In this document: positions 3,204 to 64,000 of the stretch, piece after piece | How the letters are laid out: each line of letters opens with the position of its first letter | Position numbering within the stretch: the first letter of the stretch is position 1 | Assembly (NCBI GenBank): GCA_963422645.2 | Contig: CAXXVO010000004.1 | Span: 160,001 to 224,000 of the forward strand | Reading direction: 5' to 3' | DNA from: Alphaproteobacteria bacterium | GTDB taxonomy: Bacteria > Pseudomonadota > Alphaproteobacteria > UBA828 | Length of the DNA: 64,000 nucleotides | Program-made: the position numbers and the translations under genes | Notes under the pieces: generated by a model | Seen by the model: only the letters and a program-made list of their open reading frames with translations | Told to the model about the DNA's origin: nothing | The model's database searches: none

Positions 3204-3360
3204 CTCTTGCGGACTGCGACCGGTAAGCTACCCCGATGTGGCCCGAAGTCCGCCCGCGCGACGGGCACCGATTTTCATTCTATGGGGTGGTCCAGCACGG
3301 CGTCGACCATGATCGTTTATGAGAATGGCTCCGCTGTTGGAGAACCCGTGCCAGGTGAGC

Positions 3361-4857
3361 TTACGCGCACTTGACGGTGGCGATGAGCCGATCCGATGGG
3401 CTGGTCAGGGCTTCGATGATATTCCAGCCCTGCTTTCTGGCGGTGGTGATGACGCTGCGCAGGATGGCGAAGTTCTCGGCCCCCTGCGCGGACCGGAAGC
3501 CCCCGGAGATCTTCTGGCGCAGCTTCATCATCCGAAGGTCGCGCTCGGCCTCGTTGTTCGTGAACCCGACCTCGAGGTCGATCAGGAACCGGAGCACCGC
3601 GCATTTGTGGTCGCGCAGCCTCAAGGCCAGATTGTGACCGATCCTTCGCTTCCGGCGCTTCTTCCTCTTGCCAGGCGAGAACGGTGGTTGGCTCTCGTGA
3701 AAGGCCAGCGCATCGGCGATGATCTCGTCGTATCGGCGCTCGATCAGCGCCACAAGCCTCGCCGGAACGGCGATATCCTTGTCCAGCGCGATGCGGGCGG
3801 CGCGATTGGCTCGGCGCAGGAGCTGCTGCATCCGCCGGGCCCAAGCCTCCCCTTCGATGTCCACCAGCGCCTGCAACTCCCGCAGGTGATGGGCGTTGCA
3901 CAGGCCGTGCTCCACCCCTTCCATCGCGAAGTACGGCTTCCAGTGATCGTGCACGACGATGCCGGAGACACCCGAGAGCAGGGCGCCGCGCTTGCCGCTG
4001 ACCCGGTACGCCGCCAGCAGCGGCGTGCAGATCACATGAAGCCACTGCGTCTGACCGCCGATCCGCAAGCCGGTCTCGTCCATGTGTTTCACCCGCGCCG
4101 TGCCCGCCGCCAGGTCCTGTATGTGCAAGGCCGCGTCCCGCAGCCGCTCGGCCGCCCTCTCGCTCATCGTCGCCAACGTCGCAGCCGTCACCGGCGCGCC
4201 GAAGAGCTCGGCCATCACCTGCGACAGCCGATCCTCCGGCAGGAAGTGAGCGTGCTGAAGGTAGACCGCCACCCCGGCAATGCGCGGGCCGTACTGCACC
4301 GGCGCCGACACCCCGTCGGGGAACGCCGCCCGGGTCACCGTCCCGCAATGCCCGCAGCACTTGGCATGCGCCCGGTGCTCGGTCACCTCCAGGGGGCTCG
4401 GCTCGGGCAGATCGAACACCTGGCGGGCGACGGGCGTTCCCGCCCTGGCCGCGTCCGAAAGCGGCGAACCGCATCCCTTGCAGGAAGCCGGGACGTGATC
4501 CTTCACCCGATCCGGGTGATCGGCGCGGCGCAGCGTCTTGCCCTTGTGGCCGGGCTGGCCACCGGGCTTGCGGCCCGATTTGCCGCGCAGGCTTCGGGTT
4601 CGCCGCTTCGAATTCGGCTTCCTCAGCCCATCGCTCGAAGGCGGCTTGCCGCTGTTGAGGCCGAGACGGCGCTCCAACTCCTCGATGCGCTCGACGAGAC
4701 GCGCGACTTGCTCTTCCAGCCGCGCGTTCTGCTGCCGAAGCCAGGCATTTTCCTCCCGAAGCCGGGCGTTCTCCTCCTCCAGGCGGGCGATCTTCTGCGC
4801 GGGCGTTTCGGGCGCTGCTCCCGTCGAAGGGCCGCGCGGCGACTCGGGATTGCTCAT
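3361..4857 (-). CDS. IS66-family transposase, copy 1 (498 aa, 3-aa in-frame deletion)
   Basis: Coiled-coil N-terminus, SKPPSSDG-like motif, KPGGQPGHKG, Cys zinc ribbon, HMDETG, LCNAHHLREL, FTNNEAERDLR. Confidence 0.95.
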   Translation of the reverse strand: MSNPESPRGPSTGAAPETPAQKIARLEEENARLREENAWLRQQNARLEEQVARLVERIEELERRLGLNSGKPPSSDGLRKPNSKRRTRSLRGKSGRKPGGQPGHKGKTLRRADHPDRVKDHVPASCKGCGSPLSDAARAGTPVARQVFDLPEPSPLEVTEHRAHAKCCGHCGTVTRAAFPDGVSAPVQYGPRIAGVAVYLQHAHFLPEDRLSQVMAELFGAPVTAATLATMSERAAERLRDAALHIQDLAAGTARVKHMDETGLRIGGQTQWLHVICTPLLAAYRVSGKRGALLSGVSGIVVHDHWKPYFAMEGVEHGLCNAHHLRELQALVDIEGEAWARRMQQLLRRANRAARIALDKDIAVPARLVALIERRYDEIIADALAFHESQPPFSPGKRKKRRKRRIGHNLALRLRDHKCAVLRFLIDLEVGFTNNEAERDLRMMKLRQKISGGFRSAQGAENFAILRSVITTARKQGWNIIEALTSPSDRLIATVKCA

Positions 4858-5036
4858 GTCGTTGTTGAGTCATTTCCCGAAATTCCCGTCAAGCCCTTTC
4901 CACCAACTCCGAACGAGAAACGCCTCAATCCACTGGCCCAAAATGACAAATCGTAACTACCCAGGTACCCCAATCCTGAGTTGAGGACGGTGATTATGGC
5001 GGCGGCCGCGGCCTGGTTCTGCCACCGCGATTGGTT

Positions 5037-5096
5037 CTTGACCTCATAGAGTTGCGGGACTATGGACTGCTCTCTCGCGTGACGGGAGCGGTCCAT
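5037..5096 (+). promoter_or_regulatory. Putative promoter plus RBS-occluding hairpin for the MTase-transposase unit
   Basis: CTTGAC-N17-CTATGG resembles the alphaproteobacterial RpoD consensus; 5062-5074 pairs with 5084-5096 (13 bp, 2 G-U), covering GGGAG and the AT of the ATG. Confidence 0.55.
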
Positions 5097-5760
5097 GGGG
5101 TATTTCGGCTCGAAGGCGACAGCAGGTCTGTGCCAAGCGCTGATTGCGCTGATGCCGCCGCACTCCGTCTACATCGAAAGCCACCTTGGGGGCGGGGCGC
5201 TGACGAAGCGCAAGCCGCCGGCCGTGCGTTCGATCGGCATCGACCGCGATGCGCAGGCGCTCGAGGCCTTCGTCTGCGACTACCCGGTCGATCTGGTTCA
5301 CGGCTGTGCCCATGACTTCCTGGCCTCGTTCCCGTTCCTGGGCCCGGAGCTGGTTTACAGCGATCCGCCCTATCTGCACGCGACCCGCCGCTCGGCGCAG
5401 CGCTACCGCTTCGAGTACGAGGAGGCCGGCCACGTCGCGCTTCTCGCGCTGCTCAAGGCTCTGCCCTGCCAGGTCATGATCTCGGGCCATCCGTCGGCGC
5501 TCTATGACGAGGTGCTGGCGGGATGGCGCCGGCTGGCGCTGCAGGTCACGACCCAGGGTCTGGTGCGAACCGAGGTCGTCTGGTTCAACTACGCCCCCGA
5601 CCGGATGCATTGGGCCAGCCACGCAGGCCGGAACTTCACCGACCGCCAGCGCATCAAGCGCAAGGCAGCCAACTGGGGCCGGCGCTACCAGGCCTTGCCG
5701 CCGGGCGAACGCCTCGCCGTGCTCGCCGCCATGATGGCCGTCGAGGCCGAAGACACGTGA
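5095..5760 (+). CDS. Compact N6-adenine DNA methyltransferase (Dam/D12-class-like)
   Basis: YFGSK (motif X), YIESHLGGGA (motif I, SAM binding), LVYSDPPY (catalytic motif IV), MISG. Confidence 0.85.
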   Translation: MGYFGSKATAGLCQALIALMPPHSVYIESHLGGGALTKRKPPAVRSIGIDRDAQALEAFVCDYPVDLVHGCAHDFLASFPFLGPELVYSDPPYLHATRRSAQRYRFEYEEAGHVALLALLKALPCQVMISGHPSALYDEVLAGWRRLALQVTTQGLVRTEVVWFNYAPDRMHWASHAGRNFTDRQRIKRKAANWGRRYQALPPGERLAVLAAMMAVEAEDT

Positions 5761-7025
5761 CGGTGTCGCACTGGCACGAAGACCTCGCCGCCCGTAACGA
5801 GGCCTTCTGCTGCCTGAAGGAGCTTCTCGAGCCATCATCCCTCGCAACCACTGTCGTCGTTGCCGTCCGGGAATGGGGGCAGGGGCTGCTGCGATCAGCC
5901 ACCGCGCTCGCCCGGGAAAATGCCGCACTCGAGCAGGAGAACGCGGCCCTGCGCGAGCGCATCGCCGAACTCGAGCGCAGCGCGGCCCTCAACAGCACCA
6001 CAAGCAGCAAGCCCCCCGCCAGCGACGGGCTCAAGAAGAAAAGCGGAGCCCAGAGGCGCACCCAAAGCCAGCGCGGAAAGTCCGGCGGGCCCAGTGGCGG
6101 CCAGCCCGGCCACAAGGGAACCACCCTCGCGCGGAGCGACAGCCCGGACCGTGTCGTCGATCACCACCCCTCCACCTGTTCCGGCTGTGGCGTCGAGCTC
6201 TCGGACGCCGACCGGCAAGGCGCGCCCGCCTGTCGGCAGGTCTTCGACGTACCCGAGCCGCAGCCTCTCGAGGTCACCGAACACCGCGCCCATCGCTGCC
6301 TCTGCGGCGCATGCGGCACGCTGACACGAGCCGCCTTCCCGCCGGGCGTCACCGCCCCGGTCCAGTACGGCCCTCGCATCACCGCTTGGGTGAGTTACCT
6401 GCTGTACGCCCAGTTCGTGCCCGAGAAGCGTCTGGCCGAACTCATGAGCGACATCTTCGCGGTGTCCATCTCCACTGCCACGATCGCCGCCATGGGCCGG
6501 CGCACAGCGCAGCGCTTCGAGGGCTTCCTCGACCATGTCGCCGATCTGATCCGCACGCAGGCGCCGGTCAAGCACCTCGACGAGACCGGCCTGCGTATCG
6601 CCGCCCGTACCCGCTGGCTCCATGTGCTGTGCACCCCGTTGCTCACCGTCCTGCGCATCGGCGAGGGACGCGGCGATGTCGAAAAGAACCTGAAAGGCAT
6701 CCTCGTCCACGACGACTTCGCCCCCTACTTCACCATCAAGGGCGTCCGCCACGGCGCCTGCAACGCACATCACCTGCGCGAACTCCAGGCCCTGATCGAC
6801 ATCGAGAAGGAGGAATGGGCGGCGAGCATGCACCGCCTGCTTCAGCGCGCGCGCAGGGCCGCCCGCTTCGCCCGTGAGAAAGACCGTCAAGTCCCCGCCT
6901 CCCTGGTGGCCCGCATCTCAAGGGCATGGGACCGTATCCTCGAAGAAGCCATCGCCTTCCATGAGGCCCAACCGCCGCTCCAGATCGCAAAGCGAGGGCG
7001 AAAGAAACGCCGCATCGGCCACAAC
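5757..7025 (+). pseudogene. IS66-B transposase, 5' part
   Basis: GTG overlaps the MTase stop (GTGA); LNSTTSSKPPASDG, GGQPGHKG, HLDETG, CNAHHLREL; ends at RRIGHN at the IR of the inserted element. Confidence 0.9.
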
Positions 7026-9542
7026 CTCAGACTTCCTGACCTCTGCTGATTTTAGGTGACACGAGCCGCGCGGATTCCGAGGCCCCGTCGATGTCGTAGA
7101 CTATGCGCAGACGGGTGCCGGGGAAGACCGTTTCGGTGGCGTTCAGGTCGCTCAGAACCGCATCGATCCAACGGTCGCAGGCGTCGTTTGCGAGGCCAAG
7201 AATGTGGACCCGCAGGAGGCCATTGCCAGGATCCGGCAGGATGTCGGCATCGGCGGTGAGCAGCGCTTGAAGCAGTTTCCGGGGATGGGGCTTGTGGCCC
7301 TGCGCCTGCATGACGGGAAGCATCATGCGGGTTTCGGCGCGGTAGGCGATCATCCGGATGACGTCGAGGAGGAGGCGCTCGCGCGCGGGCAAGGCATCGA
7401 GCTGCTCGGCTTCGTCGAGGTCGCCGGCCCGGCAGTGCTTGGGCGTCTCCCTGCGGCTGGCCCTGACGATGTCGCGGACATCCTGGAGGTCCCTGACTTC
7501 CCTCCTGAGTTCCGCCGTCGGCTGCTTCTTCCGGGCCGTGTCGGCGATGCGGTTGCGCAGGCGGCCAAGCTGGCGGTCGAGGCGATGGATTGCCTTGTCA
7601 TAGGCCCGCCGCAGCGGGTTGACGACCATGGCGGCGGGATCGAGAGGCTCGAGCTCGTGGGTCGGCAGGGCGTCGAGATTGAACTCGTCACGCATGTACT
7701 TGAAGAAGTTCTCCTGCGACCAGCGCGAGAACATGGCGCCCGCAACCTCAGCCATCGGCTTGTGCGGATCGGTGGTGATCAGCGGCACCTGACGGCCGTT
7801 GTCGAGCAGGCGGCGGATCTGGCGCACCCTGAAGCCGTTCGGCAACGTCACCGGCTTCTCAGCCAGCCGCATGGTGGCGCTGCCGTCCGCCGCCGGTCCG
7901 TGAATGGGAACGGTCATCGCGCCGAAGTCCTCGGCCGGCCAGTCCTCGCCCCTGAAGTTCTTGTGCCAGGTCAGGCAGGCGACGCCGCGCCTCGCCAGCC
8001 GGCGGAACAGATCCGGGCTCCAGCCCTCGCGGTCGAAGACCAGGGTGAGCGCCGGCTGGCCGGGATGCTCGGCGGTCAGGTCCGGCGCCCCGGCGCCAAC
8101 GATCCCAAGCTCCTGCAGCGCCGGCACCACGTCGGCTTCGATGGCCGCGACCATCTTCGGGTCCAGCGGCTTGTGCAGACAGAGCAGCGGCTTGCCGCCC
8201 AGAGCGTTGATCCAGTAGCTGGCGCTCGCCGGCAGGCACAGCTTCTCGCGCGAGACGAAGTGCTTGGGCAAGCGCCCCTTGCGGCCGGAGTAGACCTTGA
8301 CGTGCCCGTCGATGGCCAGCGTCGCCCAGAGCTCCGGCTCGTCGGCGCCTGCCAGCGCCTGGCAAGGGCGAGCTGCCACGCCCGCACGCCGGCCTCGTCG
8401 TCGGCGATGAGAGCGATCTTGCGGCGCAGCGTCTTGACCTCGGGGCAGCGATCGAGGCCGAGAATGGCGCCCCATTCGCCCGGCGCCTGGTAGCGCAGGC
8501 TCTCGGGGTTGCGCACCCGCGCCAAGGTCATGAAGGCCAGGAAGAGCAGGATCGTAGGCAAGCCGTAATAGCCCTTCGGCAGCAATGGCAGGAGACCGGT
8601 CTCGGAGAGAAGACCTTCCTTCAGCAGGGCCGGCAGGGCGGCGAGCACGCCGCCGAAGCGGACACCGCGGGCGGCGGCGGCGAACTGCGGTTCGACCGGC
8701 CCCGCCTGTCCACAACTGGCCAGAACCCGAGCCGGAACATCGCAAGTCGCACGCCCCATCGGCGCCTGCCGGTCCCGCCGATCGCGCGCGCTGCGATCCG
8801 TTTGCGGCTGCGCTTCCAGCCCCGGCGCCGTCTCCGGCCCCGGGGCACCGGTACTCTCTTCATCGACACGGCCTTCAGGAGCCGCACCCGCGTCAGGCGG
8901 CGCAGCCAGCGCTGAGCGTCCGGGCTCCCCATCCGCCTCCGTGTTGCCGATCAGTCCCTGACGGCGCCACTTGTTGACCGATGGCGCTGACACGCCGAGA
9001 ACCCGGGCCGCCGCAGAGCCGCTCAGGCCCGATGCCAGCAACGCCGTCGCCTTCTCCGCCAACTCCGGAGTGAACACCGACGGCCCGCGACCGCGCCGGG
9101 GCTTCATGAACCCCGCTTCGCCCTCGGCCAGGTAGCGCCGTCGTGCGCGCTGCACCGTCGCGCGCGAGACAGCGAAAGCGTCAGCCAGTTCCTGCGGCGA
9201 GACCGCGCTGATCGCCGCGAGGCGGCCGATCCGCAAGAGCATGGCCGTGCGGTCATCGGCGGCGTGGCTGTCAAAGGGAATGAGGTTGGAAAAGTAGGTG
9301 AAGGTGTCGTCCGAGATCAGGACGGCGAAGCAGCTGTTGCCGATCGAGACCGCCTCTGGAGGGCACATTGGGAGGGTACTGGGCATGGTTGAGACCGTGC
9401 AATTGGTATCAAATTATAATATCAGACCTCGGGCGCGACACCCAGCGAAAAACCGCCTGAAACAACCGAAATGTATCAGAATTCAAGGAGTTCCCGGCAC
9501 GCTGCCCAGAACAGCCAGCATCACGAGGTCAGGAAGTCTGAG
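7026..9542 (-). mobile_element. Unclassified 2.5-kb insertion sequence
   Basis: Perfect 18-bp IRs CTCAGACTTCCTGACCTC / GAGGTCAGGAAGTCTGAG; the same end recurs at 61011-61199; no TSD. Confidence 0.88.
7027..9386 (-). pseudogene. Large (~780 aa) putative DDE transposase with N-terminal HTHs, frameshifted near 8350
   Basis: ORF 8076..9386 gives two HTH-like segments; ORF 7027..8745 continues with LAIDGHVKVY, LVFDREGWSP, MFSRWSQENFFKY (D, D, E); stop lies within the IR. Confidence 0.8.
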
Positions 9543-9625
9543 GATATCGCCGTTCCGGCGAGGCTTGTGGCGCTGATCGAGCGCCGATACGACGAGATCA
9601 TCGCCGATGCGCTGGCCTTTCACGA
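9543..9625 (+). repeat. 83-bp fragment of the IS66-A transposase gene embedded in IS66-B
   Basis: Reverse complement of 3695-3777 (encodes DIAVPARLVALIERRYDEIIADALAFH). Confidence 0.92.
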
Positions 9626-9822
9626 ATAACGAGGCGGAGCGTGACATCCGTATGAACAAAGTGCATGAGAAGATCTCAGGCGGCTTCCGCTCCCCGCAAG
9701 GCGCCTGCAACTTCGCCGGAATGCGCAGCGTCATCGTCACCGCTCGAAAGCAAGGCTGGAACATCCTGCAAATCCTGGCGCACCCGGAACCGATGCAGCT
9801 GATCCCTATACTGCGCTCCTGA
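9619..9822 (+). pseudogene. IS66-B transposase, 3' part
   Basis: FTNNEAERDIRMNKVHEKISGGFRS...TARKQGWNIL, diverged from the IS66-A C-terminus. Confidence 0.9.
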
Positions 9823-10056
9823 ACTTCTCCGGCTCATCCTGAGTATCGCTGTCCTCTCATCTTGTTCGCGACGCGGCGTTCATCATCCTCTCGCGCTCAA
9901 GAGAGTAGGCACCCCCGCGGCGTGGGGGCGTTGACGCAAAAGGAACTGGCTTGTTCCATAAGAGAGAGGGGGTACCTGGGCAGTTACGACAAATCAGACG
10001 ACCTGGGCAGTTACGAAACGATAAAGCGGCCTTCGGGGGCCGGGGAGTGACGACCC

Positions 10057-63750: not shown

Positions 63751-64000
63751 GACCGGCAAGGCGCGCCCGCCTGTCGGCAGGTCTTCGACGTACCCGAGCC
63801 GCAGCCTCTCGAGGTCACCGAACACCGCGCCCATCGCTGCCTCTGCGGCGCATGCGGCACGCTGACACGAGCCGCCTTCCCGCCGGGCGTCACCGCCCCG
63901 GTCCAGTACGGCCCTCGCATCACCGCTTGGGTGAGTTACCTGCTGTACGCCCAGTTCGTGCCCGAGAAGCGTCTGGCCGAACTCATGAGCGACATCTTCG
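63751..64000 (+). mobile_element. Internal part of a second IS66-B copy (runs off window)
   Basis: Matches 6210-6459. Confidence 0.92.

Follow-up and report, generated by a model that had tools for sequence, protein, structure and literature searches.

A Dam-like methylase gene at the head of an IS66-family insertion sequence, and its cassette in insertion sequences of other families

The window analysed here is a stretch of 64,000 nucleotides (nt) from an alphaproteobacterial genome assembly (GCA_963422645.2, contig CAXXVO010000004.1, positions 160,001 to 224,000). Its positions 4953-9987 hold, with very little room for doubt, a copy of a 2508-bp insertion sequence (IS) of the IS66 family in which tnpA and tnpB are absent, a gene for a Dam-like DNA adenine methylase comes first and the transposase gene comes second. 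Comparison of the loci that encode relatives of this methylase leaves us confident that the gene, together with a putative promoter and a leader, is a portable cassette of about 730 bp, always placed 5' of a transposase gene and on the same strand. We are equally sure that this cassette was acquired by at least two deep IS66 lineages, one IS701-family element and one IS4-like element. The structural half of the interpretation given in an initial annotation of the window is thereby supported and generalised.

The methylase cassette and its transposase partners

Among 4951 candidates in the protein database, 3704 clusters (90% identity level) are homologous at E ≤ 0.001; each of the best 120 has a length of about 220 aa and an identity of 69% or more, many of them being encoded on contigs of 1-3 kb. 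At the 50% identity level there were 5554 clusters at E ≤ 0.001 and 553 at E ≤ 1e-30. Relatives are encoded in 142 stretches of genome contigs, of which the best 80, from 24 assemblies, were analysed (assembly titles: Alphaproteobacteria, Paracoccaceae, Thalassobaculaceae, Gammaproteobacteria, Ectothiorhodospiraceae, Tectimicrobiota, Dehalococcoidia, Binatia and Pontiella). Kin and multiple copies among these loci are not independent, so that the meaningful count is the number of distinct transposase partners. In 72 of these 80 loci the next gene downstream, in the same orientation, encodes an IS66 transposase. At the 11 gamma-type loci (L080-L090) the methylase is 68-70% identical to that of the window and the transposase 27-32%; comparison of the two IS66 lineages gave 66-72% identity for the methylases and 29-33% for the transposases.

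Six of the 80 loci (L069, L070 and L073-L076, from three assemblies, one with three copies) have no IS66 gene. Their cassette, with a methylase 82-84% identical to that of the window, lies inside a common unit of 2785 bp that is bounded by 19-nt inverted repeats of its own and encodes a 490-aa transposase of the IS701 type (PF13546, 4e-27; NF049999, 309 bits against a cut-off of 170). A third, divergently oriented open reading frame (ORF) of at most 176 aa (L069, 3472-4002, minus strand), without a Pfam match, is conserved across the six loci. At each of the remaining two loci (L067 and L072) a solo methylase gene follows a degenerate left end of IS66 type, amid IS debris.

Metagenome contigs, searched with the representative of a 68%-identical cluster, added 19 loci. 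At one of them (L187) the methylase gene overlaps (ATGA) the gene of a 426-aa IS4-like transposase (DDE_Tnp_1), and a third IS66 lineage with a 490-aa transposase is found at L188/L189. Further loci hold more gamma-type pairs, L194 is a solo gene, and the partners at L184 and L197 matched no family. The initial annotation had noted that the methylase gene lies where canonical IS66 elements have tnpA/tnpB; the gene is not an IS66-specific stand-in for these, since the cassette is also found in IS701-family and IS4-like elements. One database protein (P0126, 236 aa) joins the first ~150 methylase residues to the C-terminal end of an IS66 transposase and is probably an internal-deletion derivative.

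The ratio of nonsynonymous to synonymous divergence (dN/dS) of the methylases is 0.11-0.30 in all 55 pairs formed by 11 genes, and that of the transposases within lineages 0.10-0.30; judged by these ratios, the IS-borne methylases are under purifying selection. Between the alpha-type and gamma-type IS66 lineages the methylases differ by a dN of ~0.2 and a dS of ~1.1 and the transposases by a dN of ~0.9, and between alpha-type and IS701-type cassettes the methylase dS is 0.4-0.65. Set against the divergence of its carriers, this low divergence of the methylase indicates that the cassette is much younger than the split of the carriers and has moved between them. That the gene is a neutral hitch-hiker which, after a single capture, owes its spread to that of the element alone seems to us hardly credible. 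The copies in the genome of the window are indeed near-identical, so that their intactness by itself tells little, but selection acts across lineages at dS values of 0.1-1.4, the cassette sits in at least four transposase backbones, and neither the number of homologous clusters nor the identity of the best among them fits a single capture.

The cassette almost certainly has its origin among the orphan methylases that P2-like prophages and conjugative plasmids carry. In PLSDB 196 records matched, all below 60% identity, of which 134 are conjugative; IncP-1 plasmids are included, on which the relatives are annotated as upf31.0 or DNA methylase. The two plasmid loci inspected have a stand-alone gene with no IS66 or IS701 transposase nearby. 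In one published report upf31.0 is termed a site-specific methylase (PMC6266692). The best matches in IMG/VR (at most 52% identical) lie on contigs of ~35 kb beside genes for a P2 gpA-like protein, portal and baseplate, and IS66 and IS701 transposases were absent from the neighbourhood of all 80 viral loci examined. In a maximum-likelihood tree of 65 proteins (viral sequences picked by length, two too-short sequences excluded), the 22 IS-borne and solo methylases form one clade (support 100/100), whose stem measures 0.6 changes per site. The clade falls within the phage and plasmid sequences, and its sister is the viral locus L093 (80/77). Within the clade, a gamma-type group (99/89) stands opposite a group of alpha-type, IS701-type and solo methylases (100/99). 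The orphan enzymes resemble the IS-borne ones in their compact architecture and are homologous over residues 1-206 or more (43-56% identity), and the two closest relatives share the upstream palindrome described below; they differ in being stand-alone genes, and the long stem sets the IS-borne clade apart from them.

In the 5.9-Mb genome to which the window belongs, the methylase protein had 92 tblastn matches, about 50 at 97-100% and about 27 at 84-87% identity. The element is present in 36 uninterrupted copies (2507-2511 bp, at least 99.7% identical), beside a subfamily of ~86% identity, and such numbers lie far beyond what chance could produce. All 36 have an intact methylase frame, and this, together with the 72 IS66 loci, upholds the view of the initial annotation that the gene is integral to the element and not a one-off capture. 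Read at fixed length, the transposase frame is open in 28 copies; the other eight are 2510-2511 bp long and have small insertions that may or may not break the frame. Perfect 8-bp target duplications flank 22 of the 36, and most of these 8-mers are AT-rich (the genome has 67% G+C). Fourteen intact copies have no matching duplication, and some of these form reciprocal pairs with swapped flanks (in one pair the left and right flanks are GAATACAT and GGAGAGTC for one copy and the reverse for the other), which indicates that copies have recombined with one another, inverting or translocating parts of this IS-rich genome. The copies at C9:531722-534228 and C6:391794-394300 are among those without a matching duplication.

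The distribution is patchy, with bursts. Three of 20 genomes of the same genus carry the gene (1, 16 and 2 matches), as does one of 20 further relatives, and in 400 sampled genomes of the phylum there was no member of the IS clade, just two distant matches of 44-47% identity. A variant of the element, ~94-95% identical over all 2074 bases of 4953-7026, was recovered on two contigs from a sponge metagenome run. None of 24 runs was labelled as RNA; a run presumed to be RNA gave one contig of 166 nt (at 6661-6826) and two other runs gave none, which is uninformative on expression.

The methylase protein and a conserved putative promoter block

No Pfam family matched the methylase at E ≤ 0.01, and its scores for PF02086 (D12; 12 bits against a cut-off of 22) and TIGR00571 (21.1 bits against 114.85, over residues 85-150 only) are below threshold. 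A profile of 54 homologues matches DpnM (1.7e-8), E. coli Dam and T4 Dam, each in two pieces: the N-terminal G-x-K and the glycine loop align to DpnM 17-73, and DPPY with the later motifs to 183-266. The N-terminal G-x-K, the glycine loop of motif I and the DPPY of motif IV are thus all present, and Dam's helical recognition domain of ~110 residues, which lies between motifs III and IV, is replaced by ~20 residues. H23, G32, D90, P91, P92, H113, G131, G178 and R184 are invariant in the 54 homologues, G5, K7, E28, G34 and Y93, among others, are near-invariant, and DPP[YFW] is found in 167 of 174 length-filtered homologues.

The AlphaFold model of the methylase (mean predicted local distance difference test 90.7, predicted template modelling score 0.84) matches DpnM (Z 17.5; root-mean-square deviation 2.4 over 149 residues), Mcbe1 (17.5), T4 Dam (17.1) and E. 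coli Dam (16.7), whereas generic class I methylases reach a Z of at most 14.3, ~3 Z units under the Dam group; Foldseek agrees (E ~5e-7). Residues 1-168 of the model correspond to residues 15-284 of the DpnM chain, and the long basic C-terminal helices (181-199 and 203-220) had no counterpart among the structural and profile matches. From motifs and model together, the protein is probably an active N6-adenine DNA methylase of the Dam fold whose specificity may be low. We call it Dam-like rather than a member of the Dam family because it scores below the family cut-offs and has no recognition domain.

The host itself has two full-length genes of the true Dam family (PF02086; C16:163107-163820 and C8:99660-100373), which a genome-wide search with PF02086 recovers without any of the IS-borne methylases, as well as a CcrM-like gene (PF01555; C6:258191-258919). 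The element therefore supplies no function that is missing in kind from the host, and a host without Dam, as the remark in the initial annotation that alphaproteobacteria generally use CcrM might suggest, is not the rationale here.

Hia5, Hin1523 and Nme1821 are described in one report as non-specific adenine methylases of Mu-like prophages (PMC3299994). The group shares with the methylase studied here a Dam-related DPPY enzyme, a location on a transposable element and a degenerate recognition region (PMC3299994). Hia5 is there given as a protein of 281 aa with DPPY at ~194 and a divergent recognition region at ~80-170 (PMC3299994); the methylase of the window has 221 aa, DPPY at 90-93 and no such insert, a distinction drawn from the published description of Hia5.

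A conserved block, TTGAC-N2-YATAG-N10-CTATG, stands upstream of every cassette type (window 5038-5064). In its strict form it was found at 70 of 76 IS-borne methylase starts, the misses being five near-misses and one contig edge; the half-sites are fixed, in contrast to the freely variable N10 spacer. The 96 starts with at least 100 nt upstream provide 33 distinct promoter strings. Symmetry is perfect in 17 of these, among them the co-varied half-site pairs TATAG/CTATA (two strings) and CGTAG/CTACG (one string); there is one mismatch in 10, two mismatches in four and three mismatches in two. The genome of the window contains 70 units of this palindrome, 69 of them at methylase starts, where 2-4 would be expected from composition; each element has one unit, in the promoter, and none at its ends. 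We infer that the block (5038-5066 in the window) acts as the promoter of the cassette.

Outside the IS-borne clade, 56 phage and plasmid relatives were compared and only two of them carry the unit, namely those nearest to the clade: the P2-like viral contig of L093 has four tandem CATAG-N10-CTATG units ahead of the methylase gene (3340-3500), and a Xanthomonas plasmid (L091) has two. These tandem units resemble an operator array. Between the block and the methylase start a hairpin was predicted in nearly all of 24 leaders folded singly, with arm sequences that vary by lineage; RNAalifold on the promoter-leader alignment returned the CATAG/CTATG pairing only, with no informative covariation.

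At the other end of the methylase gene, its TGA stop (5758-5760) overlaps the GTG (5757) that opens the IS66 transposase frame, so that the two share GTGA (5757-5760), as the initial annotation had read it. The GTGAC junction is kept in 10 of 10 alpha-type lineages examined, and in most of them GAGG stands 4-6 nt ahead of the transposase GTG, within the 3' end of the methylase gene. The transposase frame of the window is also open for 78 codons 5' of the GTG (5523-5757), overlapping the methylase 3' end, which may be chance at 67% G+C.

Possible roles of the cassette

As the simplest model and our preferred reading, though tentatively and as a proposal that may well prove wrong, we suggest that the cassette is a self-regulated unit of promoter and methylase that throttles the transposase behind it. 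The methylase would act on the palindrome YATAG-N10-CTATG of its own promoter, which spans the spacer after the -35 box and the -10 box, by binding as a dimer, by methylating adenines in the invariant TAG...CTA cores (one of which would be the -11 adenine), or by both, and would thereby shut off its own transcription. It is the candidate to act there because it is the sole protein common to the phage, plasmid, three IS66-lineage, IS701 and IS4-like contexts. The transposase would be made from the same message and be translationally coupled, and would for that reason inherit the control of the methylase. Entry into a methylase-free cell might then bring a burst of expression, followed by a shut-off that depends on copy number and is possibly relieved briefly after replication; genome-wide adenine methylation would be a side effect or a second benefit, possibly against restriction. 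A wider form of the proposal, which we consider rather doubtful, is that the cassette is a self-contained epigenetic switch exchanged among IS families, giving 'zygotic induction' to any transposase behind it through the TAG-N12-CTA palindrome, with the -11 adenine of the -10 box included: expression would be full in a newly entered, naive genome and would then be shut off in a manner set by copy number and gated by replication.

Several observations count against such a throttle. The cassette is not needed for expansion, since two methylase-less elements of the same genome, element A (81 full-length-like copies) and element C (67 full copies, all near-identical), outnumber the 36 intact copies. 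A sigma-70 consensus scan of 4900-5900 flagged no promoter, and the putative -10 box TATGGA matches the consensus at three of six positions. The centres of the half-sites are 15 bp apart, which would place two subunits on opposite faces of the helix, an unusual arrangement for a dimeric repressor, and the paired symmetric 5-mers could equally be a weak hairpin. Apart from the six starts that miss the strict pattern, L195 and L196 retain only the left half-site, and L185 and the solo methylase L194 have neither. Coupling is not universal either, because methylase and transposase genes are separated by 20 nt in gamma-type and by 67 nt in IS701-type elements.

The cassette might instead be useful cargo, that is, an orphan anti-restriction or host-protecting enzyme, as it presumably was on the source plasmids and prophages, whose methylation of the genome or of the carrier DNA is of benefit to the host or the vehicle; the transposase would simply be driven from the methylase promoter, and the palindrome would regulate the methylase alone. 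We regard this as unlikely, if by no means negligible. The wider family does stand alone on conjugative plasmids (the 134 of 196 PLSDB records, among them IncP-1 plasmids with upf31.0), it adjoins gpA-like genes in P2-like viral contigs, and the catalytic motifs are invariant. Related Dam-like enzymes of Mu-like prophages shield DNA from restriction (PMC3299994). Cargo needs no fixed position, yet the methylase gene is 5' of the transposase gene and co-oriented with it in three IS66 lineages and in the IS701 and IS4-like elements, and the overlapping stop and start are conserved. Protection would require no more than one copy, whereas none of the 36 intact copies has a broken methylase gene, and a chromosomal IS would gain little from anti-restriction.

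An improbable alternative is that only the expression signals matter, with promoter, leader and upstream ORF selected as a translation ramp and the activity of the enzyme irrelevant to the element. It would account for promoter, leader hairpin and ORF travelling as one and for the GAGG ahead of the transposase GTG in most lineages. Irrelevant activity would, in contrast, let the catalytic residues decay, and neither the low dN/dS nor the retention of DPP[YFW] in nearly all homologues fits that prediction.

Adenine methylation is known to govern transposition elsewhere. Host Dam methylation in the transposase promoters of IS10/Tn10 and IS50/Tn5 keeps the transposase low and linked to replication, and GATC sites at the ends are marked as well; IS1 and IS2 obtain transposase control from small repressors. 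The likeness of our proposed throttle to IS10 and IS50 is one of concept only, namely adenine methylation at a transposase promoter, with the palindrome as putative target. The methylase studied here differs in being encoded by the element and in having no Dam recognition domain, and there is no common site at the ends. On the precedent of Dam with IS10 and IS50, the methylase could also mark termini or target DNA for a transposase that reads the mark, and the insertions into AT-rich 8-mers of a 67% G+C genome would suit a marked target; we nevertheless hold this to be very improbable. No motif is common to the termini of the alpha-type IS66, gamma-type IS66 and IS701 partners, the palindrome occurs once per element and away from the ends, and three unrelated transposase families would all have to read one mark. 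The marking of ends that the initial annotation had offered among its options is accordingly disfavoured. GTAC was considered as a methylase target in the termini and rejected: it is present in the alpha-type left and the IS701-type repeats and is missing from the gamma-type and several right repeats.

Insertion sequences are regarded as carrying only what movement requires, and methylation control of transposition is, to our knowledge, known only through host Dam. A small methylase gene preceded by an operator-like promoter is here the fixed, selected leading gene of elements that belong to three or more transposase families, and elements with this cassette reach dozens of copies per genome in uncultured marine and sponge-associated bacteria. 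Reviews by Siguier and Chandler are said to describe the passenger genes of transporter IS (tIS) as usually lineage-specific and placed anywhere. The element resembles a tIS in having an extra gene within the inverted repeats of a simple IS, and differs in that the methylase cassette recurs at the same leading position in several IS families. A literature search, which did not extend to ISfinder, TnPedia or supplementary material, turned up no IS of the IS66 or any other family that regularly carries a methylase gene of its own, in line with the remark in the initial annotation that no characterised example was known. Passenger-gene ISs and Dam control are already known; what appears to be new, no published description having been found, is an element-encoded methylase as fixed leading gene and an operator-like promoter common to several IS families.

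Should the cassette regulate the transposase, it would be a new and exchangeable way for an IS to limit itself and to sense a new host; it would also be the first element-encoded DNA methylase to serve as a transposition regulator, in a module swapped among IS families. In methylomes, 50-90 expressed copies of an orphan methylase should yield a strong N6-methyladenine (m6A) signal unrelated to restriction-modification, and an enzyme with a Dam core and no recognition domain might serve as an m6A tool of low specificity.

The window copy and its neighbouring elements

The features of the window copy are listed in Table 1. Inverted repeats, an 8-bp target duplication and an internal methylase gene with DPPY are all present in the sequence, as the initial annotation had stated. 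The inverted-repeat arms as detected (4951-4971 and 9969-9989) are 21 nt long and 95% complementary, the element proper being 4953-9987. An ORF and family search found neither tnpA nor tnpB inside the element, and the methylase gene is the sole ORF ahead of the transposase gene. The absence of a restriction nuclease nearby was also borne out, in that there is no nuclease-type ORF inside the 2508-bp element, the neighbouring genes encode transposases and another IS forms the left flank; this negative does not extend to the right flank, which the nuclease search left out. The second copy that had been noticed at 63751 does exist, and it is 5'-truncated and has no methylase gene.

Table 1. Features of the element and its immediate surroundings, in window coordinates
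Feature	Position	Strand	Remarks
Target duplication, left copy (GACAAATC)	4945-4952	.	8 bp; itself part of older IS66 element A
Left terminal inverted repeat	4953-4971	+	starts GTAAC; identical across 36 copies
Putative cassette promoter	5038-5066	+	TTGAC 5038-5042; CATAG 5045-5049, N10, CTATG 5060-5064; putative -10 TATGGA 5061-5066
5' leader hairpin (predicted)	5069-5089	+	3' arm contains GGAG ahead of the methylase start
Dam-like N6-adenine DNA methylase gene	5095-5760	+	221 aa; SDPPY; without Dam target-recognition domain
IS66-family transposase gene, 5' part	5757-7028	+	element positions 805-2076; GTG start overlaps methylase stop
Element C, foreign 2.5-kb IS splitting the transposase gene	7027-9543	-	Transposase_29 (PF21804); boundaries +/- ~2 nt
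Patch of element-A-type transposase sequence	9544-9607	+	takes the place of 52 bp of the element
IS66-family transposase gene, 3' part	9608-9822	+	element positions 2129-2343
Right terminal inverted repeat	9969-9987	-	pairs with left arm
Target duplication, right copy (GACAAATC)	9988-9995	.	sequence inspection and comparison with element A copies
Second copy of the element, 5'-truncated	63751-64000	+	element positions 1258-2508, runs off the window; without methylase gene

Even truncated, the transposase ORF of the window matches DDE_Tnp_IS66 (PF03050, 5.7e-26), with DUF6444 and zf-IS66 as further Pfam matches (zf-IS66, PF13005, at 24.2 bits against a cut-off of 27.3, E 4.7e-5), and scores 195.3 bits for the IS66 transposase model NF033517 of NCBIfam (cut-off 180). 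Inverted repeats beginning GTAA and an 8-bp target duplication are features of the IS66 family. Canonical IS66 and IS679 elements have tnpA-tnpB-tnpC, an operon in which the accessory genes precede the transposase gene and stop codons overlap start codons. The element studied here likewise has an accessory gene ahead of the transposase gene and an overlapping stop and start, but its accessory protein is a Dam-fold enzyme, unrelated to TnpA and TnpB and common to non-IS66 elements. As the IS66-type transposase, the terminal repeats and the target duplication are found and tnpA/tnpB are not, we place it in the single-transposase group of the family, which we take to be that of the tnpA/tnpB-less (ISBst12-type) elements, a grouping attributed to ISfinder and Gourbeyre et al. 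2010. With these it has in common a single DDE_Tnp_IS66 transposase, with a putative zf-IS66 region that scores below its cut-off, an N-terminal coiled region, GTAA repeats of ~20 bp and the 8-bp duplication; it differs by the additional upstream methylase gene with its own promoter and by the stop/start overlap.

Elsewhere in the genome, an intact copy of 2508 bp has the methylase gene at 143-808 and the gene of a 512-aa transposase at 805-2343. Positions 1-2076 of the element map to window 4953-7028 and positions 2129-2508 to 9608-9987. Between these parts lie an insertion of element C and a recombination scar, both in the transposase gene; the window copy is therefore dead and incapable of autonomous transposition. 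Beside element C, 9541-9625 is 100% identical to 3695-3779 of the neighbouring methylase-less IS66 transposase gene. Simple insertions of element C at the same points occur in both the element studied and element A, and the flank combination reciprocal to that of the scar was found at C15:337954-340471, for which reason recombination between two copies of C, with a short-homology junction, is the best reading of the scar.

Element A, into which the element has inserted 19 bp from A's end, is an IS66-family element without methylase and with a single 498-aa transposase (3361-4857, minus strand); its right remnant is at 9996-10014. All five other copies of A that were compared run uninterrupted through GACAAATC to the terminal ...CCTGGGCAGTTAC. 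The left part of the window's element A departs from other A copies near window 3120.

Element C has two overlapping minus-strand ORFs (7027-8745 and 8076-9386) and inverted repeats at ~7027-7043 and 9527-9543, and its transposase matched no NCBIfam transposase family. Its right flanks mostly start NTA, which suggests a short TA-containing target. In three copies of the 86% subfamily (C10:125347-127863, C10:208619-211135 and C5:569419-571935) element C sits exactly between the half-sites of the palindrome (flanks ...TTGACTGTATAGGT / C / TTATCTCGCCTATGGG...), and the methylase and transposase genes of these copies are thus cut off from the -35 box.

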